NCBI GenBank assembly: GCA_965233585.1
Contig: CBDDTI010000155.1
Coordinates: 1-39,841, forward strand
Length of the DNA stretch: 39,841 nt
Direction of reading: 5' to 3'
Source of the DNA: a bacterium
GTDB lineage: Bacteria; SAR324; NAC60-12
The notes beneath the pieces were generated by a model. It was given only the letters and a program-made list of their open reading frames with translations, was not told where the DNA came from and searched no databases. How positions within the stretch are numbered: the first letter of the stretch is position 1; the number at the start of each line of letters is the position of its first letter. Positions 4,556-39,841 of this stretch are shown here, piece after piece. A program made the translations under genes and the position numbers.

Positions 4556-5131
4556 CTTGCCGGAGTTCTCCTCTGCCATGACGTTGTTGCAGCTCACGCA
4601 CAATGCAATGATGAGGCAAGCGAATACACCAGATTTGAGCGCCATGGCAATGCCGACACCCCTGAGCTAAAAAGCGTCCCTGAGTGGCTTGAGGAAAAAC
4701 TCGCAAAAACGCTACGGAAGAACATAAAGATGCTGAAGAATGACACAAAATTCCAAGCGCAAACTGAAAGAGCTAATTTCTGTAGCTTCCAATTGAGACT
4801 GTCAAAGGTGCTCAAATTGAAACAAATTCCAAGGTCAAGCTCTCCAAGAACATGTGGCTTCAAACCTCCAACTGGCATATTCCCAACAGCTGAGTGCCCC
4901 GACAACAGGATGAAGAAGAGATTGATGACAAAGCCAAGGCGAGGAAGGGCAAAGGAACATGGAGCAATCCCAGCCAATGACCCAGTCAAACACAAATTCG
5001 TGGGGAGAAACAAATGAAGGGCAAAACACAAAACCCCGAAACCAAAAGAGCACATCAAATCAACCATCTCATGGTTGCATCAAGTAGGCATAAGTAAGAA
5101 AAACAAATGCTTACAAGGCTTTCTAAAAACA

Positions 5132-6052: not shown

Positions 6053-6090
6053 TATAGAATAGATTATATAATAAGTATATATTATATCAT

Positions 6091-10779: not shown

Positions 10780-10852
10780 TATAATATATTTATATTATAT
10801 TATAATAACATCTCTTTAAGTAGTTTAAGACATTTTATGTTTTTTACCTTAT

Positions 10853-18402: not shown

Positions 18403-21089
18403 ATGGTTCAATTGGACGGTGGCAATACTATCATAGGAACAGAATTTATCAAACTTTTAGCAACGGGTTCATCAACTTTAGCAACAGAGCAGTATGTAAA
18501 TACAGCAGTTGCTAATGGTGGAGTTGGTGGAGGAACAGGCACGACTGATTTAACAAATTACTATAATAAAGCTGAGACAGATGCTTTATTAAATAATAAA
18601 TATAATAAAACTGAGGCTGACACATTGTTAGATACAAAACTGAATGTAAATAATCCTCAAAATATGGAAGGAACATTGAATATAGGAAGTGTAGGTGGAA
18701 CATCAAAGATTATTATAAATGCTGTTTCATCTTCAAAAGATTTTTATGTTAATGGCGATGCACAAGTATTAGGTAATCATTTAGTAGCATCTTTGGACAG
18801 TAGCGGTTATATCAAAGGTTCAAATATTCAGTCAAATACATTCGATGCCCTCAATACAAATGATATACTTTTTCAAAGCAACAACGATACTTACATACAA
18901 TATGATGTTTCTGAAACTAAAATCGTAGCAAGTAAATTAATACAATGCGGTGGCAATCTTAAAACCCAAGAGATAGACACCATAGCACCGTTAGATTTAA
19001 TCATAAAAAGAAACAATGTCAGTATGATTGAACTTCAAGATAATCTGACGGTATTGAATACTAAAACTCAATGCGAAAATTTTATTGTATGTGATAATTT
19101 TGAAAGCAAAAATTCATCAACAATCATAAACCATATTATGAATGAAAGCACAGGAGAAATGAAATTCTATGTAGGCAGTCCGATAGTCCCCGATACAACA
19201 ACCAATTTAATTATGACATTGAAAAACGGGATTGTTGAATTTAACAAACCTACCAATTTAGATTTATCAGGGGATACATCAAACTGCTTAAAACTGACAG
19301 GAGAAACCGACCAACAAGTAGCAGGAACTGTTGCTGTTAATGGTGCCAAAAACGGAAGTAATATATTAACTGTTAATGGGGCTTCATACTTTTCAAATAA
19401 CATAGAATGTGTTAATAACATATTATGTGATTATATTGAAAGTAAGAACGCATCAACAATAATGAATTATGTAATGAATGAGAGCACTGGAGAAATTAAA
19501 TTTTATGTTGGAAGCCCCACAGTGCCGGATGCTACAACTAATTTAGTTATGACTTTACAGAATAATCTAATTACATTTCATAAACCCACAAGTCCAGATA
19601 TTGGAGGTGGAGGGGTAGATGATACTAATTTAGTAAAATATACCGGTCAGGCAGTTCAGACAATAGAAGGCGATTTGGTCATAGGTGGTGGTTCTCAATT
19701 TTCTACTTATGACTTAACGGTTAATGGTGTTTCTTATTTTAATGCAACCATAGAATTTCCATTAGGAGGTGCGATTAATTTAGGAACTGGTAAAGGTTAT
19801 ATTCGTTCTATCAATATAGGAAGTGGCACTGCCGCGTATGATTATTGTATTTTTGGTTCTGCTGGATTACATCGGTTTTATGTTGGAGGAAGTCCATTTC
19901 CTCAACACTTAAAGTATCAATTATCATCACTCAGGCGTATTTTAATGTTGATGTCGTGTGTCATACTGAATTACAAACTGATGTCATCAATACAAAAAAT
20001 GCTACTGATGTTGATTTAGTCTTTAAAAGAGGTGATGTTGAATATATGAAGTTTGAAGGAACACTACAAGCAGTGGAACTAACAAAAGGTGCTAAATCAA
20101 ACACTTATGATAGTATCGGTAATGCTGATGTCAGTTTTAGAAGGAACACCATAGATTTTATGTATCTTAGAAATGGTAATGTAGAGGTGAATACAGGTAT
20201 ATCATTAGTTGCTGAGACTGCTAAGTTTGATGTAATTGATAGTGCCACTCCTACCAATGTAGTATTTAAAAGAGGCGGTGTTAATTTCTTTACATTAGAC
20301 GGCACTAAAAATATTATTGATGTATCAACTGGTCGGGCGTTGTCGTCTCAATATATTTATGGAGACTATTTTATCCATAGAAATGTTGGTGCTGATATGG
20401 TTTTTCAAGGCAGTAATACAACAGATGACGGTTCAGTAGAATATATGAGATACAGAAAAGCAGATGAAGATGTTATTTTTTCAAAAGATATATATGTCAA
20501 TCAAGACAAAAGGGCATATTTTCACAAAGAAACTGGTAAGAATAGTTATATATTTAATGAAAATACAGCAGGTGTTAATCATTTCAAGTTAATCAATGAA
20601 GACCCTAACGGGGACATAAGATTGTATGCTAATGGTGGTATAAGACTTGTTGTTACTCCATCAAAAGTTTCTGTTCCAGCACCTTATACATTAGAAGGCG
20701 ATGTGGTTGATACTTCCGATTTTACTAAAAAATACGACATCAAAAGTATTGAACATAACTTTACTGACATTGTTAAACAAATTGAACCTAAAACTTTCAA
20801 AATGGAAGATGAAAAAGAAATTGGAATAACTAAAAACCATCTTGGATTTATTGCCGATGAGATTATGGAAGCAATACCGCCCGAATGGGAGAATATTGTT
20901 AGGGTTGATGATGAAGGTATTAAGAAGTTAAGTTATATAAAATTGTCAGGTATATTATGGGGAGTATGTAGAGAGCAACAAACAAAGATAGAACATTTAG
21001 AAACTCGTTTGTTTGAAGTTGAAAATTTCATTAAAGATTTTGTAAAACCTAAACCTAAAACAAGGACAAGAACAAAAACAACAGAATAG
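18403..21089 (+). pseudogene. Fibre/spike-like protein with C-terminal peptidase S74-type intramolecular chaperone; one frameshift near 19900-19930
   Basis: YNKxExDxLL repeats, G/N/T-rich beta repeats, internal duplication; C-terminal SD...K.DI...K.IEPKTF...GFIADE...LSY..L...L......Q coiled coil. Confidence 0.78.
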
Positions 21090-22026: not shown

Positions 22027-22793
22027 TTAATTAATATGAATTTCTTTCTCCAGTCTCACCATAAACATTTTATTAATATCACTGTCCCTTAACTTTACAA
22101 ATAAGAATGAGTAGGGTTGAGCATCAACTGCTGTTCTGTAAATTTCCAGCATTGTCTTTTTGTCTATCAGCGCTGACTGTTCTTGAATAAATGTGTCCAG
22201 TTCTGCTTGGTTTTTCAACTTGAAAATATATAAACTGCTTGTATTTAATCTAACTATAGGAGCCAGTGCGTTCAGTTTCTGTGAAGAAGTTATGACTGAT
22301 AATCCGAAGACGAGTGTCTTGATTTTGTGTAAAGTCCGTGAAGAATTTTTGAATATCTCATAAAAACTCTATCTTCTGCCCAGTCGTCAATTATAAGAAG
22401 GCAACTATATAACTTGTTCATTTTATTTTTCTTCTGGTATTCTATCACTTTGTGCTGTGTGTCTATGATGTGTGCCAGACTTTCAGGGTCATACTCATCA
22501 AACAAATATTGCTCTTTTTTGTTGTCTATTTTTAGTTCTTTCTCTATATATCGGATTACTTCTTTGTATGCTTCATCTATGTGGGCTGTCGGTGATACAA
22601 TGTATATTCTCTCAAAGCATCCCCTGTAGATTTTTAGAATGAGGTTCTGAATTAATATACCCTTTCCGCCCTGTGATGCCGATACAATGATGCTTCTGAA
22701 TGGTAGTTTGTCTGCTTGTGGGTATGGTGATTGTTTGAATTCATACTGTTTTACATTGATAGGCTCTATTTTAGGAACATCAAGTTTTGACAT
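22027..22793 (-). pseudogene. A32/FtsK-HerA-type genome packaging ATPase, frameshifted
   Basis: Walker A-like SASQGGKG, IYIVSPT, Walker B LLIIDD, SRH. After a ~5-bp insertion near 22310 the frame continues FGLSVITSSQKL..LAPIVRLN into ORF 22027-22218. Confidence 0.85.
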
Positions 22794-23169
22794 AATATAA
22801 ATTATTTAGAAAATAAAATATATTATATCTTGTAAATGGCATATCTTATTTTACCTTTGAGTATTGGGGTCAGGTAGAATATGGAACAGTTGCCGATATT
22901 ACCCATCATAAGAATGTTAATTAAAAATAAAAAATCCACCCCTTGGGCTCTTGCTTCTTTTTCATTCCCGACACGGTCTCTTTTTGCTATGACAACAAGC
23001 AGTAGAAGATTTGAAGCCTTTTTGCTCTTGAATTTGTTTGATGCTATGTTTCAATCAGCACAGTTCATTTTCTTTGACATTTACCTACCGCCCCTTATGG
23101 ATTTTTGTTTGCGCCTAAAAATCCATATATAATTAGATAGTAGTAAAATATATCATCTAATTATATAGG

Positions 23170-24208: not shown

Positions 24209-24245
24209 ATGAAATTTTGATAATATTATTATCTATAATAATATT

Positions 24246-24872
24246 ATGAAATTGTTAGAATTGTTTAGTGGCACTGGTAGTGTTGGAAGTGTAGCTAAAA
24301 ATATGGGCTGGACTGTTGTGTCATTAGATTTGAAAGGGGCTGATATAAACTGCGATATACTGCAATGGAAATACAAAAAATATCCTGTGAAATACTTTGA
24401 TATGATTTGGGTTTCACCCCCTTGTATTGAGTATAGCATCGCAAAACAAACTGGGGTAAGGAAGATTGAAGAAGCAAATGAAATAGTAATGAAAACTCTT
24501 GAGACAATCAAATACTTCAAGCCCAGAATTTGGTTCATTGAAAATCCACAAACGGGGTTATTGAAGAAGCAATCATTTATGGAGGGTTTGCCATACTTTG
24601 ATATTGACTATTGTAAATATGGGATGCAATACAGAAAAAGAACAAGGTTATGGACTAATCTGGATACTTGGACACTTAGACCTCTTTGTAAAAAGGATTG
24701 TGATAGTATGGATGGGAACAGGCATAAAGAAACAGCACAAAGGGCACCCAGTAATAAAAAGGAAACTTGGCCTGAAAACTATACCTTGTTCAAACAAAAG
24801 GATTTGTATAGAATACCTCAAGCATTGGTTGAAGAAATTATGACTGCTGTAAATGTTGTATGTTTTCAGTAA
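24246..24872 (+). CDS. Compact C5 cytosine DNA methyltransferase (viral)
   Basis: Motif I LELFSGTG, motif IV SPPC, motif VI IENP, motif VIII-like YRKRT. Confidence 0.9.
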   Translation: MKLLELFSGTGSVGSVAKNMGWTVVSLDLKGADINCDILQWKYKKYPVKYFDMIWVSPPCIEYSIAKQTGVRKIEEANEIVMKTLETIKYFKPRIWFIENPQTGLLKKQSFMEGLPYFDIDYCKYGMQYRKRTRLWTNLDTWTLRPLCKKDCDSMDGNRHKETAQRAPSNKKETWPENYTLFKQKDLYRIPQALVEEIMTAVNVVCFQ

Positions 24873-24911
24873 GATTGGGTCGTAAAGGGTTCCTACACTT
24901 GGGCTCATTGA

Positions 24912-25026
24912 GTAGGATTTGGGTTTCCTACTTGGTAGGATTTTCATTTCCTACTTGGAAAGGTGCTCATAAGGTAGGATAGGGGGTTCCTACTTGGGCT
25001 CATAAGGTAGGATAGGGGGTTCCTAC
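24912..25026. repeat. Array of four palindromes GTAGGA-N8-TCCTAC
   Basis: Copies start at 24912, 24935, 24974 and 25007. Confidence 0.88.
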
Positions 25027-25090
25027 TTGGGCTGGATTTCGGTTCTCAACTTGGAATGGAGAGGTGCCATTCCTGAAAATGTATGGGTTC

Positions 25091-25223
25091 TGTGAATGTA
25101 AAGCCAGACTTTGGACTTGCAGGTCTTGTGACATTTACCGGGCCACCCAGGCTCATGAGTTGTCAGAGTGTGAAACAGGTGCGGCTAGTTTCTCCGGTGG
25201 TTTCCCCCTTTAGTTTGTTTACA
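25091..25223 (+). repeat. 5' LTR
   Basis: TGTGAATG...GTTTACA; one substitution relative to the 3' LTR. Confidence 0.96.
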
Positions 25224-25236: not shown

Positions 25237-25314
25237 CGCTCCAGGCGGCTGTCTAACCTGGACAAAGATCTGCCATAGCCGTTGCTGTGGCGGCCTACGC
25301 TGCGGAGGTGACCC

Positions 25315-28300
25315 ATGCCGTCTCCCGTGGAGCCTGCTGCTGAGGTCGACGGTGGCTCCGCCTCTGATGAGTCCGGTGGGGGCAATGATGATGCTGCTCC
25401 TGGGGAAGAGACTCAGCAGAGGTCTACGGCAAGATGGACTGATGAGGACTGGAGGTTGTGGAACTCTGGTGGTTGGTGGGAGGCTACTAGGAATAGGGCA
25501 CCTTCAACGGAAACCACCCCGACACCTGATGGGGAACACTCAGATGGTCATGGAACTGGGTATGTACGTAGGTCGTATACCACTAGGTCTTCTGACCCTT
25601 GGTTGAACCCTTGGAAAGACCCATGGACGAGTAGTCAGTATGGGAGTCAGAGAGACGAGGTTCCTGAGGAACGTGGAGGTGGCAACGACAAGATCGTGGC
25701 CCCAGAGTTTTCTGGGGAAGAGGACCGTGATGGGACTCGTGCTCGCAGCTACTTGAGGAAGATCGAGGCGTGGCGGAGGGTCACTAGGCTCAAGCCCAAC
25801 AAGCAGGCCTTGGTCTTGTACAACGGCCTCACTGGCAAGGCGTGGCACGATGCTGAGGAGATCGATGTGAAGATGCTGGACTCCAACGACGGTGTCGAGA
25901 AGTTCATCGGCTGGATCACCCAGCGCTACCTGGACAAGGAGGTCGTGAAGGCGGGCAGGTACATGAGTGACTTCTTCAAGCTCTTCAAGCGGGGCACGAA
26001 CCAGGACATCAGGGACTACAATAGCGAGTTCGATCGCCATCTCACGAAGCTCAAAGAGGTTGGCTGCGTCCTTCCGGGAGTCTGCAGCTCATGGTGGTAC
26101 ATCGACAAGCTAAGGTTGGACAGTGCAACGGAGTTGAGCCTCTTGTCATCCGTCAACAACCAGTATGACTTGGGGCGATTGCAGGAAGCTGCAGTTGTGC
26201 AGGATCGCATGAACCGGCGCCTTTGGGAGACCGGACGGAGGAGTGACACCAAGGACAACAAGAAGAACCAGCAGGCCTACATGACTGAGCTCGACGACAT
26301 CCCTGAGGACATGGAGGACTTCGAGGATGCCGAGGACTTTGACGAGACCTACGTCCCTGACGATGAGGACCCTGAAGCCCACGAGGCATTTGTGGCCTTT
26401 CAGAATGCCAAGGCCAAGTACAACAACATGCTGAAGGCTCGTGGCACTACTTTGACTAAGAGCCGTGAGGAAGCTCTCAGTCGGGCAAAGGCACGGTCGT
26501 TCTGTTCGGCATGTGGCAAGAAGGGCCATTGGCATAAGGATGCGGAGTGCCCCAAGAACAAGGGCAAGGATGCCGCAGCTGCTCCCCATGTGACCCATGT
26601 CGTCTTCTACACGGAGGGCACCTACTTGGACACCATCGTGGATTGTGCGTGCAGTCGCACGCTGGCGGGAACTATGTGGTGCAGGAAGTACATCGAGCTG
26701 GCGAAGGACAACGGCATCCCCTACATCATCATCAACCAGGACGAGACCTTCAAGTTTGGTGGACCGAAGCTCTACCCATCCAAGAAGGCGATCATCGGGT
26801 GGCTGGCCATTCAAGGCCGTTGGTTTTTGATCAAGATAGCTCTGGTGGCAGCACAAGTGCCGCTTCTCTTGAGCCGGCCCGTGTTGGCCTCTCTTGGAAT
26901 GAACTACAAGATGGACATCAATGTGGCGGACTTCACAAAGCTTAGCCTTGAGCATGTCAAGCTTGATTTCACGACTTCTGGACATCCCAGAGTCAATGCT
27001 GTGAATTTTGGACCGAAGGTCCCACTCTGGCCGGACAACATCGACTGGAGTGTGACAGAAGTGCACATCCCCGACACGGCATCTGCTGCGTCCCGAGCAT
27101 ACATGGCGAGTGCTGCTTCTGTTGGGCGGGTCCACTTCTTTTACCCCAAAGTACATGGACACATTTTTGACATGCTCACCCGTGACACATTGCCGAGTGA
27201 AACTTTCCTACATTGGTGGAACCAACAAACACATGTACGAGATTTTTGGGTGGAAGATGATGAATACATGGTGAGGGTACATGTGACACCACGTCGCACA
27301 TGTTTTGACCCTGGACGCTGGAACACGTCAGATGACACTTTGAGGACAAACCTTTTGAAGGAATTAGATGAGTGCAGGGAAACGACATGCATTCCATGCT
27401 ATGGCAATGGCATCACACATTGTCTTGAACATCGGTGGCGTCATGATTCTTCACCACGTGCTGACTTCTTGTGGATTGGCCGCAGCCGTTTTCGTCGTCG
27501 ACGCACGACGGAGCAAACCTGCTGCCCCACAATTCGACCTGTGTCGGATGTCCAGGACCGCTCCCAAGTCGCCATGGAAGATGACTCGTGCCGAGCTCAT
27601 CCAACAGATGGAGGATCTGGACATCCCAGTGAGGTACGAGTGGACTGTGCCGGAGCTGAGGGCGACTCTCTTGGGGACGCTGGACACCAAGGGGGACCAC
27701 ACCTACAAAGCGGTCGGCATCTCGCACATGTCGCTGGACGCCTTGAAGGAGAAGTGCAGCCAGGAGGGCATCCCCTTGCCGCCGCGACCCACACGGGGGC
27801 TACTCATGAAGCTGCTGCGGGAGAACACCCCACCGACCGGCGAGGAGAAGGTGTGCTTCGGGAGCTACAGGGGCTTCATGTACAAGGAGGTCAACTGGAG
27901 CTACCTGAACTGGGCGGTGAAGGAGGTGGAGACGAACCCCAACCACAGCCCAGACTTGGCACGTCTGGCTCGTTGGGCACAAGCCGAGAAGTCCAAGCCC
28001 CCTCGCGGTGGAACTTCTTCCGTGAGTGGGGATCCAGAACGTTCGGCCGTTCTGCCGATTCCTCTGGAGGCGCTTCCCAAGGCCAAGCACAAGATGGAGA
28101 AGAACACCATGAAGACAGCGAGAACATCGAGGACTCGGCCTCTGACGTCGGATTCCGAGGGATTCAGCCTGGTGTCGGAGCCCGAGATGAGCACGGAGGA
28201 TCAGATCAAGGACATGGAGTCGCGACTTCAGGTGCTGAAGGCCGTCAAAGCGGAGGAGGACAAGAAGGACAAGGGGTACTAGCTGGTGCCTCCAAAGTCA

Positions 28301-31300
28301 AGATGAAGAAGAAGGCCTATTGGGACAAGGTCGATCAGCTTCACAAGATGCGCATCGAGATGAACAGGAGGAGCTGCTACATCACTGCCGAGCACGACGC
28401 CCTTGACGAGCTCTACAACGTTGGGGAGACTACGCCCACCGCAGAGCTCTACGTCCCTGAGGAGAACACCATCTTTGAGGCTGAGCAGGACTCTGATGTG
28501 ATCGACCTTGACGACTATGATACAGATAAGGAGACCGGGCATCCCAGGATCAAGCTGACCTACCCGGAGGACTATGATGAGGTGAGGAATCTGCCCTCAA
28601 AAAGGATGAAGAGGGTGGCCAAAAAGCGTGTCAAAGGTTGGGTCCACCGGGCCTTGCTTTGCCTCACAACGACATTGGTCGCACTTTCCACTCCTGTGGT
28701 GGCAGAGTTGAACGATGCCATCCTGGAGCCGGCCAAGGATCTTTGCAAGGCTGTGCTAGGACCCAATGCTCTTCAGGGCAAGAAGGAAGAGATCGCACTC
28801 CTTGAGCTGTTTGCGGGTTCCGCCCACCTTACAATGGAGTTCGCTCGACAAGGACATCATGTCTTGGAACCCCGAGACATCTTGTATGGCCACAACCTCT
28901 TTGACCCGCTCCAGCAGGAGTCGGTCTTCAACGACATCCAGTATAAGAGGCCCAAGCTCTTGTGGATCGCTTTGCCTTGTACCAAGTGGTCCACCTGGCA
29001 AAGGTACAACTATGCCCATCGAAAACAGCAACTACGCCGAGAACGTCAGAAGCAAAGGAGGTTGGTGCATTTCGCTGTGGAGGCGGCTTGGCACCAAGTG
29101 GCAATGGGCAACGAGGTGATGTTCGAGCACCCCAAGTACTCGGACATGTGGACAGATCCATCTATGCAGAGCTTCATGGAGTGTGAACATGTGGTCGCGG
29201 CCGATTTGGACATGTGTCGTTATGACCTGAGGGCCGTCACGGATGGCGGTAGGCTCAGGAAACCAACCAAGGTCGTGGCCACCAATCCCAACTTGGTGAA
29301 GGAGCTCACCAGGACTTGTCATGGAGGCCATGAACATACTCCCACTGAGGGCCGAAATACCAAAGCTGCAGGGATTTACACCCGCACTTTCTGCAAGGCC
29401 GTGATTGAGGGGTACAAGAACACTGATAGAAGCGTGTGGTTTCAACCTGGAGACCATGCTGCTGCCAAGACCACGTGGGAGAACTACGTGGCCAACAATG
29501 AGGGTGACTTGACAACAACATCGGGCAACAATATGTCCGGTATCGAGTTCCCCGAGAATGTGCCTGCAACATTGGGCAAAGCACTGAGGCGCGTCCATCA
29601 GAACCTTGGGCACCCAGCCAACCATGATTTAGCACGACATCTCAAATTGTCTGGTGCGAGTGAAGCTGCTGTGAAAGCTGCTCAAGGCTTACGCTGCACC
29701 ACTTGCAATCGGAAAGGCAATCCAGGAACAAGGAGGCCAGCCAAATTGGCTCGCCCCATGGAGTTCAACCAAGAAGTTTGCCTCGACACGCTCAACCTCC
29801 TGGACTCTGAGAAGAAGAAGGTTGAGGTCTTGTCCATCGTGGACACCGCCACGGGGTACCATGTAGTGAAGAAGATCAGAGGCCGCAAGTCAGCCGACTT
29901 GTTGGCCGATTTCACTGACGCTTGGCTCACTTGGGCTGGGCCACCTTTGAAAGTGACATGCGACCAAGAGAGGGGTTTCATTAAGGACTTCGTGGACGGT
30001 CTTGAGATGGTGGGCATCCAGGTGCGTTTCATTGCTGGGCAGGCACATTGGCAACAAGGAATAGTTGAACGTCAAGGCCAGTGGTACCGGGCCATTTGGG
30101 ACCGGACTATTGCCCACAGTCAACCACTACCACATGAGATTGAATATACCCTGGCCATGGTTTCTGCAGCCAAGAACAACCTGAGGAGAAAACATGGCTA
30201 CTCACCTGCACAGTGGCTCTTTGGAGCAGAACCTCGTCTAGGAGATGCCATGCTGGACGAGGACGCCAACCTCTACACCAAGGAGGAACTGAGATCCCCT
30301 AATGAAGTCTGGAGAAGGAGACAAGCAATTCGCCTGGCTGCCCGAGAAGCTTTCATGCAGACACAGGCTGATGATGCTCTCAAACGAGCCCTACTTGGGC
30401 GACCACGCGCTGATCAGGAAATCTATGAACAAGGAGACTACGTCTACATCTTCAGTCAACAAGACGACGGGTGGTGTGGCACGAAAACGCCAAAACGTCG
30501 GTGAGTGGATCGGCCCTGGTGTAGTGGTCGGTAAAGAGGGTAGCTCCTACTGGGTCTCACGCGGTGGTCGTTGTGTTCTATGTGCAGCAGAACACCTTCG
30601 CCCTGCAGAATCTGAGGAGCTTGGTATGGCCTTTCAGACCAAAGTGGTGAAGGACGACTTGATGAGGTTGGCACACCGCCTGGACAACAGCGACGACGAT
30701 GAAGTCTTTTCGCAGATGCGATGGATGAGGTGAGACCGAAGAGAGAGATCAACTATGAGGCGGTGCCAGAGAGAAGGCTGAGGACTAAAGGGGTAGTGCG
30801 TATGCATAAACGACCAGTCCCTGAAGGAGGAGACACTCAAGCACACCGTGGCCGTTCTCTTCCACCAGTACCCGATGATGACATCGAGGACATGTTGGAT
30901 CAGGAAGTCGAGCAAGCCACATCTTCCAGACCGACAGCACAGGCACTGATGGTGGAAAAGAGGATACCTCGTTCAACCATCAAGCAGAACGACAAGGAGA
31001 TCCGATGGGAAGACATCCCTGAGGAAGAGAGAGCCTGTTATGTCAACGCGGAGAAGAAGCAATGGACCGAGCACCTTCACTACGAAGCTGTACGAGTTCA
31101 CCCACCTGAAGATGCAGCTCTCTTGAGGAAGAAGGTGCCCAAAGAACGCATCCTCCGGGCGAGGTTCGCCTACCGGGACAAGCACGCCGCGAAACGACGT
31201 GAAGATGCTTCACTACCTCCAAAAGCTAAGGCGAGGCTGTGCATCGGGGGTCATCAAGATCCTGATCTGCAGAAGGGCGAGGTCAACACCGAGGCCCCTA

Positions 31301-32756
31301 CTGCTTCGAGAATGTCCTTGCTCACCTTGCTTTTCCTGGCGGCCCAGTTTGGATGGCAGCTAGCAGCTGGCGACGTGGAGGCCGCCTTCCTCAACGGGAT
31401 TGAGTCCAAACGTGGGCTCTACTTTGAGCCACCACGTCGTGGCTTACCAGAAGTGGAACCAGGCTCCCTCATCGAGATCGTGAAAGGGGTCTTTGGTCTT
31501 TCCAACTCACCTAGGCTTTGGTGGGACAAATTAGCCAAAGAACTCAAAGAGCTGAAGATCAAGGTTGGTGACGACACCCTTACTTTGAGTCATCACGACC
31601 TTGACCCATGTTTCTTCCCCTACGAGATCAACGTGGTCAACTACGAGGGGGCCTGATCACTCATGTCGACGACCTGCTCATCGCTGCCCCTCCTTCGGAG
31701 ATGGGACAACTACAGGTGGAACTTTCAGGATTGTTCCCCATTGCAAAGTGGGAATCTGGTACCTTCGACTACACGGGCGCTACCATCAAGCAGGTGGACC
31801 AGGTCATCGAGCTCTACCAGACTGACTATGTCAACACTCGCTTGGAGGCCGTGGAGATTCCAAAGAATGTGGAGACAGAGGAGATTGCAGACCAGGTCAC
31901 CAAGCAGGATAACATGAGCACCATTGGCGCCCTTTCCTGGCTGGCATCACAAACCAGGCCAGATCTCCAAGCTGGAGTCTCCCTTTCTCAGAGACGACAG
32001 CGCGACCCCACCTTCCAAGATGTGAAGAACACGAACAAGCTGGTCAAAATGGCACAGGCTGGGAAGGGTGAACCTCTTCAGTTCACGAAGGTTTCCGATG
32101 GATTAGATGACCTACTCCTGCTGGTATACAATGATGCGGCTTGGGCTAACGCTACGCTGGATCCCAACCACGAGCTTCCTGAGGACTACGAAGCAGCTGC
32201 TGGACATGGGGTGTATTCCCAACTTGGGCACCTGCTGCTCATGACGAGCCGCGCTGCTTTGTCAGGCCAAGAAGTGCCAGGCACCGTGGTAGGATGGAAG
32301 TCACACGGGTGCCCACGTGTTTGCCGTAGCACTTTTGCGGCAGAAGTCATGGCAGGATTGGAAGGTTGGGAAGAAGCCTTATGCTTCCGCTCTTTCATTG
32401 CGGGAGCCTTATCGGCTCAACCTGGCGGGCTTCGCGAGGCCAATGCGAGGGCCCTTTTTCCCATAGTCAGTTTGACTGACTGCAAGTCCGTGTACGACAA
32501 CGTCCATCGTGTGGGAGGACCAAGAGCACCAAGCGAGAAGAGATTGGTAGTGGACCTTACGGCCCTGAGGATGATGGTTGGCGAAGAGGCAGCCTACTGG
32601 GGCGGCATCATTCATGGAGCCCGGACTCTGCGTTGGCTCCCTACAGGAATGCAGCTGGCAGACATCCTCACGAAGGTCATCCCAGATGTACGTAGCTGGT
32701 GGGCCAACACACGCACCATCAAGCTACCTTTTTCATCCCCTGCAAGTCCAACGTAA
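25315..32756 (+). pseudogene. Copia polyprotein: Gag, zinc knuckle, protease, C5-MTase-like domain, integrase, RT, RNase H; three frameshifts (~30455, ~30710, ~31615)
   Basis: CSACGKKGHWHKDAEC; IVDCACS; ELFAG/LPC/EHP; HQNLGH..CTTC, CLD/CDQ/IVER; KARL..GG, GDVEAAFL, HVDD; NDAAW, AAE, TDCKS, QLADILTK, spread over four ORFs. Confidence 0.92.
27548..28282 (+). CDS. Overprinted +1-frame ORF within the Copia polyprotein (HeH/SAP-like repeats plus FGxYxG...YLxW module)
   Basis: Open 27368-28282, first plausible ATG at 27548; protein-like sequence with C/G-ending codons, while the polyprotein frame is open but low-complexity here. Confidence 0.7.
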   Translation: MSRTAPKSPWKMTRAELIQQMEDLDIPVRYEWTVPELRATLLGTLDTKGDHTYKAVGISHMSLDALKEKCSQEGIPLPPRPTRGLLMKLLRENTPPTGEEKVCFGSYRGFMYKEVNWSYLNWAVKEVETNPNHSPDLARLARWAQAEKSKPPRGGTSSVSGDPERSAVLPIPLEALPKAKHKMEKNTMKTARTSRTRPLTSDSEGFSLVSEPEMSTEDQIKDMESRLQVLKAVKAEEDKKDKGY

Positions 32757-32767
32757 AACACAACCAG

Positions 32768-32900
32768 TGTGAATGTAAAGCCAGACTTTGGACTTGCAGG
32801 TCTTGTGACATTTACCGGGCCACTCAGGCTCATGAGTTGTCAGAGTGTGAAACAGGTGCGGCTAGTTTCTCCGGTGGTTTCCCCCTTTAGTTTGTTTACA
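32768..32900 (+). repeat. 3' LTR
   Basis: 132 of 133 positions identical to the 5' LTR. Confidence 0.96.
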
Positions 32901-33027
32901 GGTTCCATTCCCCAAAATGTATATAGGGGGTGCATTCCTACCCAAAAATGATTAAATGTCCTTCATAATCTGCCCAAAATGTAGGGGCTACATTCCCCAA
33001 AATGGAGGGGTTCCATTCCCATTATCT

Positions 33028-33153
33028 GGGCTGGACATAGGGATGTCTAAGGGCTGGACATAGGGATGTCTAAGGGCTGGACATAGGGATGTCTAAGGGC
33101 TGGACATAGGGATGTCTAAGGGCTGGACATAGGGATGTCTAAGGGCTGGACAT
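33028..33153. repeat. Tandem repeat, 23-bp unit GGGCTGGACATAGGGATGTCTAA x5.5
   Basis: Perfect copies at 33028, 33051, 33074, 33097, 33120 and a partial one at 33143; each full unit contains GACAT-N4-ATGTC. Confidence 0.95.
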
Positions 33154-33173
33154 TGGGTATTGAGCCTATGGAC

Positions 33174-33327
33174 GTATTCAGCATTTGAATACAGAATAAG
33201 GGCGTATTCAGATACTGAATACGGGGTATTCAGCATTTGAATACAGAATAATGGCGTATTCGGATACTGAATACAGAATACGGGTGTATTCGGATACTGA
33301 ATACGGGTGTATTCGGATACTGAATAC
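33174..33327. repeat. Array of six palindromes GTATTC-N7-GAATAC
   Basis: Copies start at 33174, 33204, 33226, 33256, 33286 and 33309, with 3-11 bp spacers. Confidence 0.92.
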
Positions 33328-33549
33328 GGGGTATTTAACAAATGAATTGTTTTTAGATGGTTTCTTCTTCTCATTCATTTTTATGTAATTGCTGGGATGT
33401 GGCTTTATAGATAAATTATTTCATAAATAATTTATCTTAAAGTCCATTCATAGGTATAGGCTTTGCAATAGGCTTTTGAATGAGGTTAAGTGTATGGTTT
33501 GTTGTTATGGTTTGTGGTAAGGTTTGTTTTATGGTCTATTGTATCGTTT

Positions 33550-34465
33550 AGGTTGTTTTGTTTTTTCTTTGTTTTATGTGTTTGTTTTGATTTTGTTGTT
33601 GATTATGTTATAATCTAGGGAAAAGGGATAGGAAAGACACTTAAAGAGTTATTACCTATCTATAGTAGGTAATGGAGGATACTAAAGTCAAGGTAATGGA
33701 GGATACTAAAGTCAAGTGTGCTAAATGTTTTAAGGAAATGGAAGAGGGTAAATACAAAACTTGTGATAAATGTAGGGAATATATGAGGGCTAATCATCAA
33801 AAGAACAAAGAAAAATATAATGAAAGGAGGAGAGAGTATTATTACAATCATATAGAGGAGGCAAAGGACTATGCTAGAAATTATGGTAGGACACACAGTG
33901 AAGAAATAAATGAAAGAAGAAGAAATCATAGAGCAGAAAACATTGAACAAGTGACTGCTAAAATAAAATGGATGACCTGCCCTGTATGTGATGATTATGA
34001 AATTCAATGTAAGAATTACAAGAGACACACACAAACAACAAAGCATCTGGAGAACTTAAAGAAACAGCAAACATAAATTTCATTTTATAATTTCAAAATT
34101 ATAAAAGTGAAATTGTTTTTTGTTATGATTTATGGTATAGTCTTTTTTATAATCTATTGTATTGTTTAGGCTGTTTGAGTTTTTTGTTTTGTTGTTTTGT
34201 TGTTATGATTTATGTTATTGTTTTCTATAAGGTGGTGCTCCCCTGTCTTTGGTATTAACCCCATAGAATTTGCTTGTATAATAATGTGGGCGGTTAGATG
34301 AGAAAGACGGGGGAGCAACAGTCTAACTCTATGTTATCCCCAGTTCAGTGGAGATATCAACTTATATAGTTTAATTCTATGTTAAATATATCAGTTCTAT
34401 GAATTCTCATTTTTTTTAGTTTAATTCTATGTTATCCAGAGTTTTTTTTCTATTATCCCCAGTTC
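33550..34465 (-). repeat. Right terminal inverted repeat of the Polinton-like element
   Basis: Reverse complement of 2510-3365 with small indels; ends ...TTATCCCCAGTTC. Confidence 0.92.
33672..34076 (+). CDS. TIR-encoded zinc-finger/basic helical protein, right copy
   Basis: Near-identical to the left copy; intact CPVC...RHTQTTKH finger; 24-bp tandem duplication of the start (MEDTKVKV-MEDTKVK). Confidence 0.75.
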   Translation: MEDTKVKVMEDTKVKCAKCFKEMEEGKYKTCDKCREYMRANHQKNKEKYNERRREYYYNHIEEAKDYARNYGRTHSEEINERRRNHRAENIEQVTAKIKWMTCPVCDDYEIQCKNYKRHTQTTKHLENLKKQQT

Positions 34466-34920
34466 TATGGTTTATAAACCAACTTATATCAAAGAGTTTA
34501 CATGTGGTTATATTTATTTATTTGTATATATATATATGGTTTATAACCATCTGATATGGCTGTGGCTGAATTCTATGGTTTATGGATGTTTATGGCAGGT
34601 ATAACGAACTAGTGAAAATGGGGTTTATAAACCAACAAACATAGCTGGGGGCACCCCATCCCGTAGCCATGGTGATTCATATTCGTAATATAGGATTAAT
34701 GATGACTGGGAATAGTCGGATTATTCTCCAAGTACTGATTCATAGTAGGACTTAACTTCATAGTAGGACTTACTATTCCTGGGATGATTCTCCACTGATT
34801 GATGGGATGGGAATATCAAATGGTGAGTTCAATGGGATTTCAGGGGTGTCATGGGATTTTATGGTGATTATTAGGGATTTAATGATATATTAGTATGGAA
34901 TGTTGATAATTAATGGGATT

Positions 34921-35037
34921 TACCCTCTGGTTATTCAACATAGCCATGGAAAATGGCCCCTTTATAGATGATTTTCCCATTGAAACCTCCATTTATGAGG
35001 GATTTTCCATGGCTATGTTAGTCATAACCAGAGGGTA
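34921..35037. mobile_element. MITE-like host repeat (~117 bp)
   Basis: Terminal inverted repeats TACCCTCTGGTTAT...ATAACCAGAGGGTA; related copies at 35413-35531 and 2007-2073. Confidence 0.8.
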
Positions 35038-35412
35038 AACTGAGGGTAATAGGACTCACTGGGATTCAAGGGGATTTAACGGCTTTACCGTTTACCACAT
35101 TACAGTCATGAGATCATTGGGAATCTCTGGTGGTTTTTCAGTCACTCATAGAGTCACACATGGGAATGCCATAAACAACTACCATTTGGGGGGTGAAATC
35201 CCACCCATAATGGGATCATAGGGAATCAATAAAGGTTTAGTGGGATGTGTGTCAGGTTGTCATGCAATTTTATGGTGATTCTTGGGGATTGTTCACGAAC
35301 ATGTGGAGAGATCGACCCATTCGCTTCGATGAAATAAACCGGACTATAAGATGGCGATTTTCCAGATCTAACAACTTCGCTGAGGGTAAAGGATGGACAA
35401 AAAATAAATATA

Positions 35413-35531
35413 TACCATCTGGTTATGACTAACATAGCCATGGAAATTCCCCTATAAATGGAGGTTTTAATGGGAAAATCATCTATTTCTATGGGCCATT
35501 TTCCATGGCTATGTGAAATAACCAGAGGGTA
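35413..35531. mobile_element. MITE-like host repeat, second copy (opposite orientation)
   Basis: TACCATCTGGTTAT...ATAACCAGAGGGTA with the same internal CATAGCCATGGAAA motifs. Confidence 0.8.
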
Positions 35532-36027
35532 TAAATAAATGAGGAAAAAAACAGCCGTCATTAAATCCCCAAAAACAGTTGTTCGGTATACTAACCAGCA
35601 AAGGTTCCTTTGAGGAACCTGGATTTCATTCTGGAGTCACTGAGCTATTTTGGGTGGATGAAACTGGGAGTCACTGAGGTTGTTGTGCGAAATTTGTAAA
35701 GCTTCAGTAATCTATTGGATTCTTTGATTAAGACATCATTCGATAATATACTGATGACATTGTATGACATCATCTGACAGTCAATCTTATCTTTCATCTT
35801 TATATCGTATTACATTATATTGATGACTATCATATGATATATTGACTGTAAATCTTATGACATAATATTGATTCTTTCGTATCTGTATCATCTCTGTATA
35901 TTATCTCTGATAAAAAAAAATGTAATTTATCATGTTATCTTGTGACATCTTATCTTTCGTATCTTTCGTATCATTCTGTGCCACCCCGCCACGGATCCCG
36001 TAACGGATTGGGCAAACGGCGCGACGC

Positions 36028-36093
36028 CTCGGTATCCTCGGCCGACTTGTGACCAACGACTTGCACACCCAGCTCCATGTCGTTCAGTAACTC
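36028..36093 (-). CDS. Host gene exon, N-terminal part of PDZ domain (ELLNDMELGVQVVGHKSAEDTE)
   Basis: 66 nt, CAG acceptor, GC donor; LGVQV matches the PDZ beta-B strand pattern and joins in frame to exon 2415-2486. Confidence 0.7.
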
Positions 36094-36352
36094 CTGGAGC
36101 CCATGGCGAGAGATGTCGGATTTATCAAAAAAAGAACGGGAGAGTCGGAGAGTCTTCTTGAAGAACACAAAGATCTATCAGTCTATCTAGATATAGATAT
36201 AGATACAGCTATATTATATATATATATATATTCACGCATACATACATATATACCGTATATCTATATATATATATACATGTCTGTATATGTATATTTTATA
36301 TGTATCAAAATGCCATGTTTTCTCATCCACCAATCACAAATGGCCGAATCTC

Positions 36353-36418
36353 CTCCTCGGTGGTGTAGATCAGATTCTTCAGGGAAAAGGTCTTGGGGTC
36401 CCTGTAGAGCTGCAAGAC
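36353..36418 (-). CDS. Host gene exon (VLQLYRDPKTFSLKNLIYTTEE)
   Basis: 66 nt, CAG acceptor, GA donor, in phase with both neighbouring exons; the 3' end could shift by one GAG codon. Confidence 0.6.
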
Positions 36419-36753
36419 CTGCAACGGAGCTGGGATAAAGCCGGGCCATGGCGGCCATGGTCACATACAGGCGCAAAGTGGTTATATCGTGATTTCAATC
36501 TCCATTCTTGGATTGTTTCTACCTGATCTTCTTGGTGCCTACGTCTAGTTGTGAAAAGTCCAATGTCCGTAAATCTTAGTTTTGCATGATCAGCACATCT
36601 CAATTTCTGCTGAAAAATCTCACCAACAACTCATCCAAAAACTCAAAAACTCATCCCAAAAAAAACAAAAAAAAACATTTCTGTGGCCATACCTCCATTT
36701 TTTCCCGGTGAAGCCTCCTTTTTTTTCCTGGTGAAACCCATGGCACCGGTGAC

Positions 36754-36864
36754 CTTTGAGATGAAGACCGGCTCCCCGGACATCACCGCGTGGTGAAGCG
36801 CGGAGAAGCCATGCGCATCCGTCAGCCCCAGGAGGTACGGATAGTGGGAGACCATGGCACGCAC
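36754..36864 (-). CDS. Host gene exon, ankyrin-repeat-like (VRAMVSHYPYLLGLTDAHGFSALHHAVMSGEPVFISK)
   Basis: 111 nt, AG acceptor and GT donor, GC-rich; D-x-x-G-x-S-A-L-H-x-A ankyrin motif. Confidence 0.75.
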
Positions 36865-37418
36865 CTTTTCGCACGGTGAATTCAAAGTTCTCTATGTCAA
36901 TTGAATTTTAGATATTATACATATACACTATCTATATATACATATATATATATATAATATTACATATCTATTCTCCAACTGGGATTGATAATCACCAACT
37001 GGGATTGGTAGGGAGGAATGTTGATGGATCCCTGATCCTATCACCTTGATGTCAACCTTGAAGATGATGTTAAAGTCCCTGACTTACCAATCAATGTCCA
37101 AACCCTGCAGGATCAACGGCCGCACCAGTTTTCCAATGGCACAAGCAACGATACCCTCCCGCCGCAGGCAACACTGAGCCTATTCCCCGGCTACGGTGGG
37201 ATTTGGCTTTCATTGAGGACCCTTGGATATTCATCTCGAACAGGCAGTGATTTGTGATTCCCTCTACTTCAAGTTTTGTTCGAGATGCTGAGATTGCCAC
37301 AGCAAAATGCCAATATGATTCACTTCCCCATGGAACTTGATGTACAAGCAGTTGCAAAAATCAATCAAAATTTGCTCACTCAAAGAATGGACGTCTTGGC
37401 TTTTCCAATTTCCTCAAG

Positions 37419-39841
37419 TTACTGCTTATCCCCCGTTTTGGAACCATCTGACAAAGTGCGAAACCACTGCATCCTGGCTCGGGAATCAGACCTCGCGCGG
37501 AGAATCTGCGCTTCATCGTGCAAACTGTATCGGCCTCCCTCCATGCAGGCTCTGAGGACACTGGCGTCCATGCATTTGGTAAGTGCATCGGCTAGTTGTG
37601 CCTGGGATGGTACCCAGCGAATCATGATTCCATTGTTCAAAGTGTTCTTTAATCAGCTTTGCTTGCAGCTGTGTGCGAAACTCTTGACAACTGGGTGGAG
37701 CGTGGCGACTAATGAGGTCATACAAGAACTTACAGTCAGTGGTAATTATATCATGTTTATTGGAGTTGATCTGTTTAAGGAAATTGTATTGGGGTGGTGG
37801 TGCATTCGGTGTGTCATTACTGGATGGTGGGATTGCCGCAAACGCAGGTGGAAGTCTGAGTAGAGTTTCATCGGCCTGTTGCCATCGGCAGCTGCCATCT
37901 TGCAGCCAAGCCCAGTACAGACGCACCCAGGATAGGATATCCACGGCTCCTGCCAACGACATTGCCTCTGCCGACAACGTGCTAACAACAACCTTTTGTA
38001 TTTTCTTGGAGTGCCACACCACTGGGTTTACCGGACTGTTCTTGTTTTCTCCAATGTCCTTGTGACTGGCCATGATGATCATCCCTTGGTGTGAGTCGGG
38101 AACTTTTTCCGAAGCAAACGACGCATCAGAGAAGGCTACAAATCTCAGGTGTTCAATTGGAATTGGCTGGATTTTGATGGTGACGTTGGCAAACATTTTG
38201 GCTTCATGAAGGATTTTGTTGGCTTCAAGTAAAGTGGAAATTGTACACTTATTGATTTGTGATTGAAGCCATCCCAACTTACTACAAAGGTCAGGTCTAG
38301 TATTGACTGCCGCATATTGGAGAGAACCAACCAACGCTCGGAGTGATTGTCTTTCTGTTTCATTGACTGGGTCATTTGGAGTTTGACGGCGTTCTTTGGG
38401 AATTGTTATTGGATGTATATCTTTCACATATTGTTCTTGACTTACCCAAATGGATTGATCTTTTTGTTGGACAATCTTCAAACCAGTGAACGTGAATTCT
38501 CGGCTACGCTTGCTCCCAAAAGGATATTTGGCTTCAAGTTCTGCAAGACGCTTGTGAAAAACAGGAGACCCACAGCATAATCCATCATCCACATGAATTC
38601 CAATCATTCCTTCAGGTTTTCCTTGTTTATCTCTGAGTATGAAGGTGCATGGATCAAATGGAGCTGTTTCAAATCCCAATTTCTCTAAGCTTTGCTTGAG
38701 TTCTTGAAACCAGAGACACGGAGCATCTACCCTCCCGTAGGCTCCCTTGAGCAACCTGACAATTTCATCTTGGCGCAACTTCAGTTTGGTGCGCATTTCA
38801 GCAGGAGGTTCCATGCCCAAAACTCTGTCGCTGCATTCGGTTCCTCGCAAAAACGCTGTTTTGATATCAAAACTGTGTATGTCCCATCCAAGGCTAGCAG
38901 CATGTTGGAGTATGAGAACCCTTGATAGCTTTGACATGGTTGGGCTGTATCTTGGGATTTGATCTACCATAGGGTCTTCAAATCCGAGAACGACCAAGCG
39001 AGCTTTCGGCTTCTGGCGAGGCTGTTGCACGCCAGTGACTATCTTCGGATTTCCAGTGCTAGGACCTTCATCGACGTCCTTCCACGTCAGGATCCATCGG
39101 CATCGCAAGATGTTCTCAGCAGGGACCTGATTCCTCAGGATTCTACACACTGTGCTTGTGGCCAGCCAGCTGTCAACTTCCTTGGACTTGGCATCTTCAA
39201 ACAATTGACGATCTTTGGGACTAAGAGTTGATATCTTGACTTCACTTCTTTGGCGTTTTGCGGCTGAAACCAAAAAGGACATTTCTTCGGGTCGTGTTTC
39301 CTCTTTCCAGTGGTCGATATCCCTTTGGTTAATTTCAACTTCAAAATGATAACAGTGATCTTCATGAAGGTTGAATATAATTTCTTCATCCACGTACAAG
39401 CTTTCGCCTTCATCGGAGGTTTCAGGCAGTGGGACTTCATGTGCTGGTAAGTTTACTTGAGGGTTATTGTCAGGAAAGTTATGTGATGGTGATCTACTGG
39501 AAATTGATGTAATGTCCGGGTTCTTGATCTGGTTGATCTTTGGGTGACTCCACAGCTGGCCTTTCGGCGGGCTCTGGCATGTTGGGCCCATTGGCCTCGG
39601 CTGGTAAGCTTCCTTCGGTGCCTGGTGAGGTACCGATCGTGGGCGGGTCGGCTCCGGTGCTTTCTGGATTTCTTGGGGCAGTTGGATGAGGCAACATGTC
39701 ATGAAACTGAACACCACCATGAGTTGGTCGAATGCTCAAATCAGCAGGCTTTTGGGTCTCTTGCATTGGGTGGTGCTTAAACTCTTCAAATGCTGAAAGG
39801 CTTCTAACATATTCAGGGGGTACCCGGTAGAGCTTGTGGTG
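37419..39841 (-). mobile_element. Second Copia retrotransposon (RT-RNase H part; 5' portion outside the window; frameshift near 37640)
   Basis: CRWILTWK, KARLVVLGF, FDIKTAFL, HVDD, FSDASF, SAE, then RWVP...QLADALTK in another frame. A possible 3' LTR lies at ~37095-37378 (TG...CA) but cannot be confirmed. Confidence 0.9.

Follow-up and report, generated by a model that had tools for sequence, protein, structure and literature searches.

A conserved +1-frame gene predicted within the polyprotein linker of a Copia-type retrotransposon

Can the polyprotein of a retrotransposon hold a second, complete gene in another reading frame? The question is raised by a Copia-type retrotransposon with long terminal repeats (LTRs) in contig CBDDTI010000155.1, whose whole stretch of 39,841 nt was analyzed and is referred to here as the window. 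Between positions 27548 and 28282, the frame of the polyprotein (frame 0) and the +1 frame are both open, and an earlier note, made from the letters of the DNA alone, had read this segment as an overprinted gene hidden inside the polyprotein. The overall explanation that we favor, and hold to be fairly probable, is a nested and conserved +1 accessory gene within the Copia polyprotein linker of this dinoflagellate-type lineage. The argument turns on the following features.

25315..30504, + strand: polyprotein open reading frame (ORF), frame 0, with a gag-type zinc knuckle, protease-side region, linker, DNA methyltransferase (DNMT)-like domain, and integrase
27368..27547, + strand: open +1 "leader" of 60 open codons, with frame-0-type divergence
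27547..28281, + strand: polyprotein-frame linker (P0001 aa 746-990), Gly/Glu/Gln/His-rich by translation and composition, stop-free versus 6.5 stops expected, and read through by six relatives
27548..28282, + strand: nested +1 gene of 244 codons plus TAG (28280-28282) for a HeH/SAP and QSregVF_b-like product, recognized by composition, homologues, and a conserved Met

Two open frames over the same DNA

The polyprotein ORF extends from stop to stop over 25312-30504 (1730 aa, with an ATG at 25315), ends prematurely in the window copy, and is collinear in frame 0 from 25315 with the related proteins P0171-P0176 and P0197. It is overlapped on the + strand by a +1-frame ORF that spans 27368-28282 from stop to stop (304 aa). 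Within 27548-28282, no stop interrupts the polyprotein frame, the third frame contains 12, and the single stop of the +1 frame is the terminator of the ORF at 28280; over the whole of 25312-30504, 48 stops fall in the +1 frame, where the second-longest open run measures 119 codons. The element is GC-rich and has other long ORFs off the coding frame, one of them reaching 353 codons on the minus strand, and openness was therefore assessed by direct shuffle tests. With the +1 protein fixed and its synonymous codons permuted, a mean of 6.46 frame-0 stops was expected and none was observed, an outcome found in 4 of 20,000 shuffles; shuffling the codon order of the +1 frame gave a mean of 7.88 and P(0) = 0.0001. 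In the converse test, where the polyprotein-frame codons were shuffled, the +1 frame acquired a mean of 4.77 stops, with P(<=1) = 0.011. Of the +1 codons, 25 end in T, and in no case does the next codon start with AA, AG, or GA, though 77 of the 244 codons start so, and the equivalent frame elsewhere in the element (-1 of the coding frame) contains 96 stops in 1731 codons. The openness of both frames for more than 700 nt, which the earlier note had pointed out, is real and beyond chance.

The composition of the segment is that of a +1-frame gene. A codon-usage model, trained on the remainder of the polyprotein and scored in windows, favors the +1 frame in 10 of the 11 windows between 27412 and 28162, versus 1 of the 57 other windows. 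The GC content at third codon positions (GC3) of the +1 frame is 0.81 in the segment versus 0.63-0.66 in the flanks, and the position composition is of coding type. The polyprotein-frame peptide is the spacer rich in Gly, Glu, Gln, and His that had been described from its translation: it contains 20% Gly, no Lys, and no Tyr, and its hydrophobic residues amount to 15.5%, versus 30% in the remaining polyprotein. The linker is rich in Gly and free of Lys and Tyr because the G/C-rich third positions of the +1 codons become the first positions of frame-0 codons.

Selection on the two frames was compared between the window and the lineage of P0197 and P0154 over identical DNA. In the 60 codons upstream of Met 27548, identity is 45% in the +1 frame versus 61% in frame 0. 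From Met 27548 to the end of the gene, it is 56% (73% positives) in the +1 frame versus 37% (49% positives) in frame 0, and for the folded part alone these values are 60% versus 39%; the flanking polyprotein is 65% identical, with no indels up to the C-terminus. Nucleotide divergence at the three +1 codon positions within the gene is 0.37, 0.24, and 0.40, which is the usual coding pattern with position 3 damped; in the leader upstream of Met, the divergence maximum lies at frame-0 codon position 3. These comparisons indicate that the constraint switches frame at Met 27548 and that the +1 frame is the main selected frame, the polyprotein reading being weakly constrained: the absence of stops is the sole constraint seen on frame 0 in the segment, and the +1 frame is clearly constrained. 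Probably, the polyprotein linker is the overprinting frame and the +1 gene is the older one. The overlap itself stands as claimed in the earlier note, but the polarity conveyed there by the term "overprinted" is probably reversed. Outside the 304-codon ORF, 48 stops over 1,427 codons (3.4% per codon) give a chance probability of about 0.125 for a 60-codon open run, and the leader is probably non-coding in the +1 frame.

Other members of the family point to the same two-frame layout. Six relatives (P0171-P0176, 43-65% identical) give single frame-0 alignments straight through the region, and P0197, which belongs to the cluster of P0172, is encoded by one ORF (2,491 aa; contig of 7,679 nt) and represents an apparently intact element. 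Frame-0 and +1 proteins were then paired, and for each position it was determined whether some codon pair can encode both residues; the baselines are 14% per position for random sequences, about 22% for neighboring diagonals, and 40-55% for non-matching lineages. The numbers of compatible positions are as follows.

P0197 (frame 0) and P0154 (+1): 317 of 317
P0197 (frame 0) and P0156 (+1): 329 of 329
P0197 (frame 0) and P0155 (+1): 203 of 203
P0195 (frame 0) and P0003 (+1): 317 of 317
P0171 (frame 0) and P0204 (+1): 184 of 184
P0173 (frame 0) and P0210 (+1): 264 of 276
P0175 (frame 0) and P0209 (+1): 269 of 284

For P0197 and P0154, chained dynamic programming found that a consistent DNA exists at all 318 codons. 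A scan of genome contigs with the family alignment produced 89 pattern matches, none of which was confirmed by tblastn. The read-through proteins and the codon-compatible pairs indicate that a read-through frame 0 and a +1 ORF of about 280-330 codons share the same sequence in four or more other lineages (45-65% protein identity). They also indicate that 27548-28282 is a real, conserved dual-coding region; dual coding had been proposed at the outset.

The family and predicted fold of the +1 product

A HMMER search of the whole library with the 244-aa +1 product returned 296 homologue clusters at E<=0.001, including 160 at E<=1e-10. Among the 150 listed representatives, 92 are at most 350 aa long. 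Met 27548 is the start residue in all 24 representatives that begin there; in 46 of the 73 representatives extending upstream, a Met lies within 4 residues of this column, versus a chance expectation of 20%, and several of the remaining ones have a Met about 13 residues upstream. At the other end, the last helix is reached by 46 representatives, 42 of which terminate within 40 aa of it. Thus, by alignment, both the start Met and the stop of the +1 gene are conserved.

The AlphaFold2 (AF2) model of the +1 product, built with an alignment of 44 homologous sequences, has a mean predicted local distance difference test score (pLDDT) of 84.5, with values above 92 for residues 10-150. It consists of two helix-loop-helix units, a small beta-beta-alpha-alpha module, a low-confidence stretch, and a long terminal helix. 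The product is predicted to be a folded protein, in line with the earlier note, and the peptide motifs quoted there are present in the +1 translation. The modeled parts are located as follows.

27587..27688, + strand: first helix-extended-helix unit, residues 14-47 (AF2 helices H14-23 and H34-47, pLDDT >90), with SAP, Rho_N, and HeH Pfam matches in the family
27734..27826, + strand: second helix-extended-helix unit, residues 63-93 (AF2 helices H63-72 and H83-93)
27845..27997, + strand: FGxYxG...Y..W module of QSregVF_b/ExoX-like_C type, residues ~100-150, with Pfam matches in family members and pLDDT ~95
27998..28192, + strand: low-confidence linker of the +1 protein, residues 151-215, pLDDT 51-68
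28193..28270, + strand: C-terminal long helix, residues 216-241, a candidate coiled coil (AF2 H216-241, pLDDT 86-95)

In the 44 sequences, Y119 and W122 are invariant, and the C-terminal helix follows the consensus pattern EI..LE.RLA.LK. The Pfam scan of these 44 family members at E<=1 gave the following matches.

QSregVF_b (PF12843): 33 of 44 members, best E 3.1e-5
SAP (PF02037): 20 of 44 members, best E 3.9e-8
Rho_N (PF07498): 16 of 44 members, best E 3.3e-6
ExoX-like_C (PF20600): 10 of 44 members, best E 1.8e-5
HeH (PF12949): 6 of 44 members, best E 5.1e-5

When 23 members were re-scanned against the curated cut-offs, the 22-bit cut-off of QSregVF_b was passed by three of them (P0006 with 24.2 bits, P0210 with 23.4, and P0209 with 22.3), with partial matches that cover approximately positions 9-36 of the 66-position profile. 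The SAP cut-off was passed by one re-scanned member (P0022, 26.7 bits), and the best HeH match reached 23.3 bits versus a cut-off of 28.9. The weak SAP match of the window copy spans residues 58-76, and no QSregVF_b match is listed for this copy. Weak Foldseek matches of the +1 model include the SAP-like CDNF C-domain, Rho_N, and HeH proteins; a sequence-profile search of PDB with the family alignment gave nothing better than E = 0.026, and an ESM Atlas search with residues 1-155 gave no usable match. The family therefore resembles SAP/HeH/LEM/Rho_N and QSregVF_b/ExoX-like_C in its profile matches and in a model with two helix-loop-helix units and a beta-beta-alpha-alpha module, but differs from typical SAP/HeH and QSregVF_b members in that the matches are partial and mostly under the curated cut-offs, the window copy never reaching one. 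The SAP/HeH and DUF3820-like guesses made from the letters alone hold as resemblances at the family level, where a few matches exceed a cut-off, and do not hold for the window copy at that threshold; formal membership in these families is borderline. As a separate observation, residues 122-147 of the +1 product are matched at 33 separate places in the homologue P0012 (4,625 aa), which looks like a long array of the Y..W module.

Proposed expression and competing explanations

In the proposed mechanism, frame 0 would stay open so that ribosomes starting at the gag AUG at 25315 can reach the methyltransferase-like domain, the integrase, and the reverse transcriptase. In the segment, this frame would be a spacer with openness as its only requirement, within one ORF running from gag to RNase H as in P0197, and the resulting glycine-rich, lysine-free, and weakly conserved linker would lie between the protease side and the DNMT-like/integrase side. 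Frame +1, from AUG 27548 to TAG 28280-28282, would encode an accessory protein of 244 aa, distinct from the polyprotein. Its translation would begin at AUG 27548 on a shorter RNA, which may be spliced, trans-spliced, or internally started. Splicing is the route used by Drosophila copia and retroviruses, and spliced-leader trans-splicing is used by dinoflagellates. Going by its domain type only, the +1 protein is predicted to bind DNA or chromatin; it may oligomerise via the C-terminal helix, and our best guess is that it would help the element, perhaps as a tether or escort of the cDNA/integrase complex. The polyprotein linker would then be a reading laid over an older and more strongly selected +1 gene. 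A more far-reaching scenario can be drawn, in which a widespread dinoflagellate Copia lineage produces a hidden +1 chromatin-tethering protein from a spliced-leader trans-spliced sub-genomic RNA, and this protein, together with the DNMT-like domain and the integrase, selects or marks the places of insertion in largely histone-poor chromatin. The arrangement would then be a retrotransposon counterpart to the spacer/PreS overlap of hepadnaviruses; we regard this scenario as a long shot.

Several observations weigh against a nested gene. As many as 40 of the 150 listed representatives exceed 800 aa, and many of them hold the domain in frame with gag-protease and/or integrase; if some of these long proteins are uninterrupted ORFs, the domain may be an ordinary polyprotein domain in part of the family. 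P0095, P0128, P0144, P0146, and P0026 have the frame-0 motif LWxGRxxF and, continuing in the same frame, the beginning of the domain. The pol part of the window copy is broken, and this copy may not be expressed. Its Pfam scores lie under the curated cut-offs (SAP 17.6 bits versus 23.9), and Foldseek found no match to the whole +1 model at E<=0.001 in PDB and BFVD, a result that says little for a multi-domain and flexible model. Finally, the two-frame openness of the relatives is derived from pairs of predicted proteins, mostly from different contigs of one lineage.

The in-frame proteins bear most directly on the question, since the earlier note had named a segment lying in frame with the polyprotein in other copies as the outcome that would contradict a nested gene. 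On paper, many long proteins show this arrangement, but among 13 of them whose source was looked up, 11 are Symbiodiniaceae gene models (10 from NCBI Symbiodinium and 1 from Cladocopium), and the remaining two, P0026 and P0028, are ENA predictions. The in-frame gene models skip 100-1000 nt of window sequence between their last frame-0 and first +1 match, and most of them exit the domain ahead of the C-terminal helix. This pattern would match the behavior of an intron-permitting predictor that stitches together the best-scoring frames. Among the ENA predictions, P0081, P0023, P0127, P0132, P0051, and P0214 switch frame at scattered sites within the segment; the pipeline behind many ENA metagenome proteins presumably includes a frameshift-tolerant gene caller. 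A search for longer in-frame fusions gave two matches, one being an ENA protein that switches frame in the middle of the first helix and the other a Durusdinium gene model. In view of the five sequences with the LWxGRxxF motif, a true in-frame version may exist in parts of the family, which is the main caveat. The NCBI Symbiodinium models P0120, P0074, P0057, P0125, and others appear to join segments of two frames and to skip 100-1000 nt; the NCBI Symbiodinium models of these elements are probably annotation chimeras.

The damaged pol of the window copy serves as an internal control for ordinary frame displacement, which is present at two places.

30455..30712, + strand: C-terminal segment of the integrase, displaced to +1 in this copy only; P0194 aligns with the +1 reading (82.6% identity, 86 aa), and 5 stops interrupt frame 0
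31605..32756, + strand: rest of pol, displaced to frame +2; P0197 residues 2107-2482 match at 71% in frame +2

The second of these shifts, to +2, falls near 31605-31620. The segment at 27548-28282 is unlike an ordinary displacement because displaced pol of the same copy collects frame-0 stops: there are 5 in the 86 codons of 30455-30712 and none in the segment. The displaced pol exists in spite of the single mismatch between the 133-bp LTRs, and a young copy of a defective master, a trans-mobilised copy, and indel errors of the assembly are all possible sources of it.

With this control at hand, two of the competing explanations can be weighed together. The domain could be an ordinary in-frame polyprotein domain whose entry and exit frameshifts in the window copy stem from decay or assembly error, with frame 0 open only incidentally; the many long homologues with the domain in frame and the other frame displacements in pol would fit this. 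However, incidental openness of frame 0 has P ~2e-4, genuine displacement in pol brings 5 stops within 86 codons, 11 of the 13 looked-up in-frame homologues are intron-permitting gene models with skips of 100-1000 nt, and no fewer than four other lineages (45-65% identity), with the intact 2,491-aa ORF among them, show the two-frame layout, so that this explanation appears very unlikely for the lineage of the window copy. A chance open frame in GC-rich DNA, or the dead relic of a captured host gene, would be compatible with the long off-frame ORFs of the element, such as that of 353 codons on the minus strand, and the GC3 of 0.81, unlike the rest of the element, would fit a foreign origin; yet it has to face 296 homologue clusters, a +1 frame better conserved than frame 0 over the same DNA, a coding-type divergence pattern, a conserved Met and stop, and a confident fold, and we find it hardly credible. 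The readings as a chance ORF and as a compensated frameshift were rejected in view of the shuffle P ~2e-4, the conserved two-frame layout, the pol control, and the homologue clusters.

Two other explanations accept a conserved +1 frame and differ in the protein made from it. In one, programmed +1 frameshifting within 27368-27547 would yield a Gag-protease-HeH fusion ending at 28282, whereas unshifted ribosomes would make pol, and the shift would set the ratio of structural to enzymatic proteins. Frameshifting of the +1 kind is known from Ty1-type elements, with this effect on the ratio in Ty1; the open +1 stretch ahead of the Met measures 60 codons here and 60-72 codons in the relatives P0154 and P0156; and proteins of 824-962 aa that run from gag through protease and the domain to a stop do exist (P0028, P0044, and P0073). 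On the other hand, one of these three proteins, P0028, is an ENA prediction and the other two are eukaryotic gene models, a scan of 27300-28300 for four known +1 shift motifs and for the canonical -1 heptamer X XXY YYZ found none, 60 open codons have the chance probability of about 0.125 given above, the leader is under frame-0 constraint only, and the constraint flips exactly at the conserved Met; frameshifting is quite unlikely in our estimate. In the other explanation, the +1 ORF would be spliced to downstream pol into a HeH-DNMT-like-integrase fusion, with no free-standing protein. In Durusdinium, the gene model P0215 (1,298 aa) has the domain at its start and frame-0 pol after it, and P0031 and P0034 are similar, but these proteins look like gene-model or frame-hopping predictions (the source was checked for P0215 only), and the last helix and stop are conserved, with 42 of 46 representatives ending just past that helix; such a fusion is distinctly improbable. 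The nested accessory gene with a product of its own thus remains the explanation that we prefer.

The element, its methyltransferase-like domain, and known parallels

The element that carries the predicted nested gene is 7.8 kb long with 55% GC and is embedded in 31%-GC DNA. Its remaining features are listed below.

25086..25090, + strand: target-site duplication GGTTC, left copy, read directly, with the same 5 bases at 32901-32905 after the 3' LTR
25091..25223, + strand: 5' LTR, 133 bp, TG...CA, direct repeat family D3, 99% identical to 32768-32900
28792..29430, + strand: C5-DNA-methyltransferase-like fold in frame 0 (AF2 model of 28432-29511, residues 121-333 mostly with pLDDT >83)
29767..30033, + strand: integrase core (Pfam rve, aa 1486-1574, E = 2.7e-6, 28 bits, under the 32.6 cut-off)
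30703..31656, + strand: reverse transcriptase part, in frame 0 again (Pfam RVT_2, E = 6.1e-11, in the next ORF)
32768..32900, + strand: 3' LTR, by alignment and sequence reading
32901..32905, + strand: target-site duplication GGTTC, right copy, read directly

The two LTRs (25091-25223 and 32768-32900) are identical at 132 of 133 positions, with 1 mismatch, and the ends have the TG...CA termini and the 5-bp target-site duplication of Ty1/Copia elements. The gene order is also that of Ty1/Copia, with the integrase upstream of an RVT_2-type reverse transcriptase, and the named, more distant homologues in Symbiodinium, Cladocopium, and Durusdinium bear the source names RE1, RE2, GIP, or Copia protein. 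Because of the LTRs and target-site duplication, the order of rve and RVT_2, and the source names of relatives, the element is assigned by sequence to the Copia-type LTR retrotransposons of the kind found in dinoflagellates. For Symbiodinium Copia elements, the accessible part of Chen et al. (PMC5776459) gives an integrase, a reverse transcriptase, an RNase H, and LTRs, and makes no mention there of extra ORFs.

Directly downstream of the +1 gene, where a methyltransferase domain had been claimed in the earlier note, the modeled polyprotein folds like a C5 DNA methyltransferase, and its activity is putative. The AF2 model of 28432-29511 has a mean pLDDT of 74 with a core above 83, and Foldseek returned 59 PDB matches at E<=0.001, with DNMT3A/3B on top and M.HhaI and DNMT2 also listed, at modest TM-scores of 0.25-0.46. 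Pfam DNA_methylase (PF00145) was matched at E<=1 by neither the window domain nor any of seven relatives. The columns P182-C183 and F127-x-G129 are invariant among 8 sequences, and we take them to be C5 methyltransferase motifs IV and I, respectively. Co-folding of the +1 protein with the DNMT-like domain, its possible partner according to the earlier note, was a weak pass that we do not count as binding evidence, with a median of 0.33 (runs 0.00, 0.56, and 0.33) versus 0.00 for the highest-scoring of 3 controls. The lower bounds were 0% for contact agreement among the runs and 64 for partner pLDDT, and the alignments supplied were our own. The mark used was reached by 116 of 157 solved complexes and by 2 of 215 mismatched pairs, and scores of at most 0.60 include only 18 of the passing solved complexes and both passing mismatches. 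In its accessible part, a study of DNMT-bearing elements says that Symbiodinium Copia elements are without a DNMT domain (PMC5890265), and the DNMT elements listed for Symbiodiniaceae in the portion covered of a 2026 preprint are DIRS and LINE only.

The closest working analogue of the proposed arrangement would be found in the hepadnaviruses, where the polymerase spacer overlaps the PreS/S envelope gene. Like the element described here, hepadnaviruses are reverse-transcribing and have an enzyme polyprotein with a flexible, poorly conserved linker whose DNA encodes a separately expressed protein in another frame; unlike them, the present case is a Copia element of a protist, and its nested product looks like a nuclear DNA-binding protein by prediction rather than an envelope protein. 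Hepadnaviral overprinting is the topic of a published paper (PMC4263362). The two-product routes of Ty1 and copia and the overlapping genes of retroviruses appear to be more distant parallels than the hepadnaviral one. Ty1 has a +1 frameshift at the gag-pol junction, and Drosophila copia makes gag from spliced RNA; both belong to the same superfamily as the present element, and in both a second frame or a second RNA yields more than one product, but these are consecutive polyprotein parts with a short overlap, whereas here a 244-codon gene would lie wholly inside a continuing polyprotein ORF. Plant LTR elements carry additional ORFs. Overlapping genes in general are well known in viruses and rarely documented in eukaryotic retrotransposons. 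In deltaretroviruses, accessory genes in overlapping frames have been described as a "gene nursery" in the part of that source available (PMC3744397). Retroviral accessory genes share with the +1 gene the presence of extra proteins in alternative retroelement frames that are recognisable by composition; however, the retroviral genes are located toward the 3' end, and many of them are young and disordered, whereas here the nested frame is predicted to be folded and is better conserved, and it is the linker that appears disordered.

Elements with captured domains are also comparable, namely arthropod Copia with an MBD (PMC6673714) and DIRS and Gypsy elements with DNMT3 (PMC5890265), as given in the accessible parts of these papers. 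They likewise have a chromatin-related module beyond gag and pol, but the modules lie within the polyprotein or in a separate ORF upstream of the reverse transcriptase ORF, none being described as nested in those parts, whereas the gene proposed here is nested in another frame. In searches of the open-access literature, as far as its text was accessible, no account came up of an out-of-frame gene nested inside a Copia polyprotein, nor did any paper that joins retrotransposon, SAP domain, and dinoflagellate. If the nested gene is real, the Symbiodiniaceae gene models of these elements are probably mis-spliced two-frame chimeras, the element family carries an unrecognised accessory protein and an adjoining unrecognised DNMT-like domain, and the linker is a clean natural case of a polyprotein that tolerates a sequence dictated by another gene. 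The nested gene would also be a testable handle on how retroelements reach dinoflagellate chromatin.

The DNA around the Copia element (1-25085 and 32906-37000) has 31% GC and is densely coding and virus-like. The following features in it were recognized by Pfam.

5132-6136, - strand: rve integrase
6730-10794, - strand: 1,354-aa ORF with an SF1 helicase match
19842-21089: Peptidase_S74 fibre-chaperone match
22290-22805, - strand: Pox_A32-type packaging ATPase
24213-24872: C5 DNA methylase
within the flanking AT-rich DNA (1-25085 and 32906-37000): three GIY-YIG ORFs

We assume that this gene set resembles a virophage or polinton-like element; if this resemblance is right, the retrotransposon would have inserted into an integrated small DNA virus. 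A 51%-GC island at 4136-5017 in the AT-rich DNA encodes a 293-aa ORF without a Pfam match. Tandem repeats flank the insertion (24897-25045 and 33005-33347), with 33-nt units on the left and, on the right, 23-nt units in 6 copies that are mostly 98-100% identical, as well as other units. Near the end of the window, 44-49%-GC DNA contains a second Copia-type reverse transcriptase ORF (37513-39735, - strand), which matches RVT_2 at E = 1.4e-16 and is approximately 25% identical to P0197.

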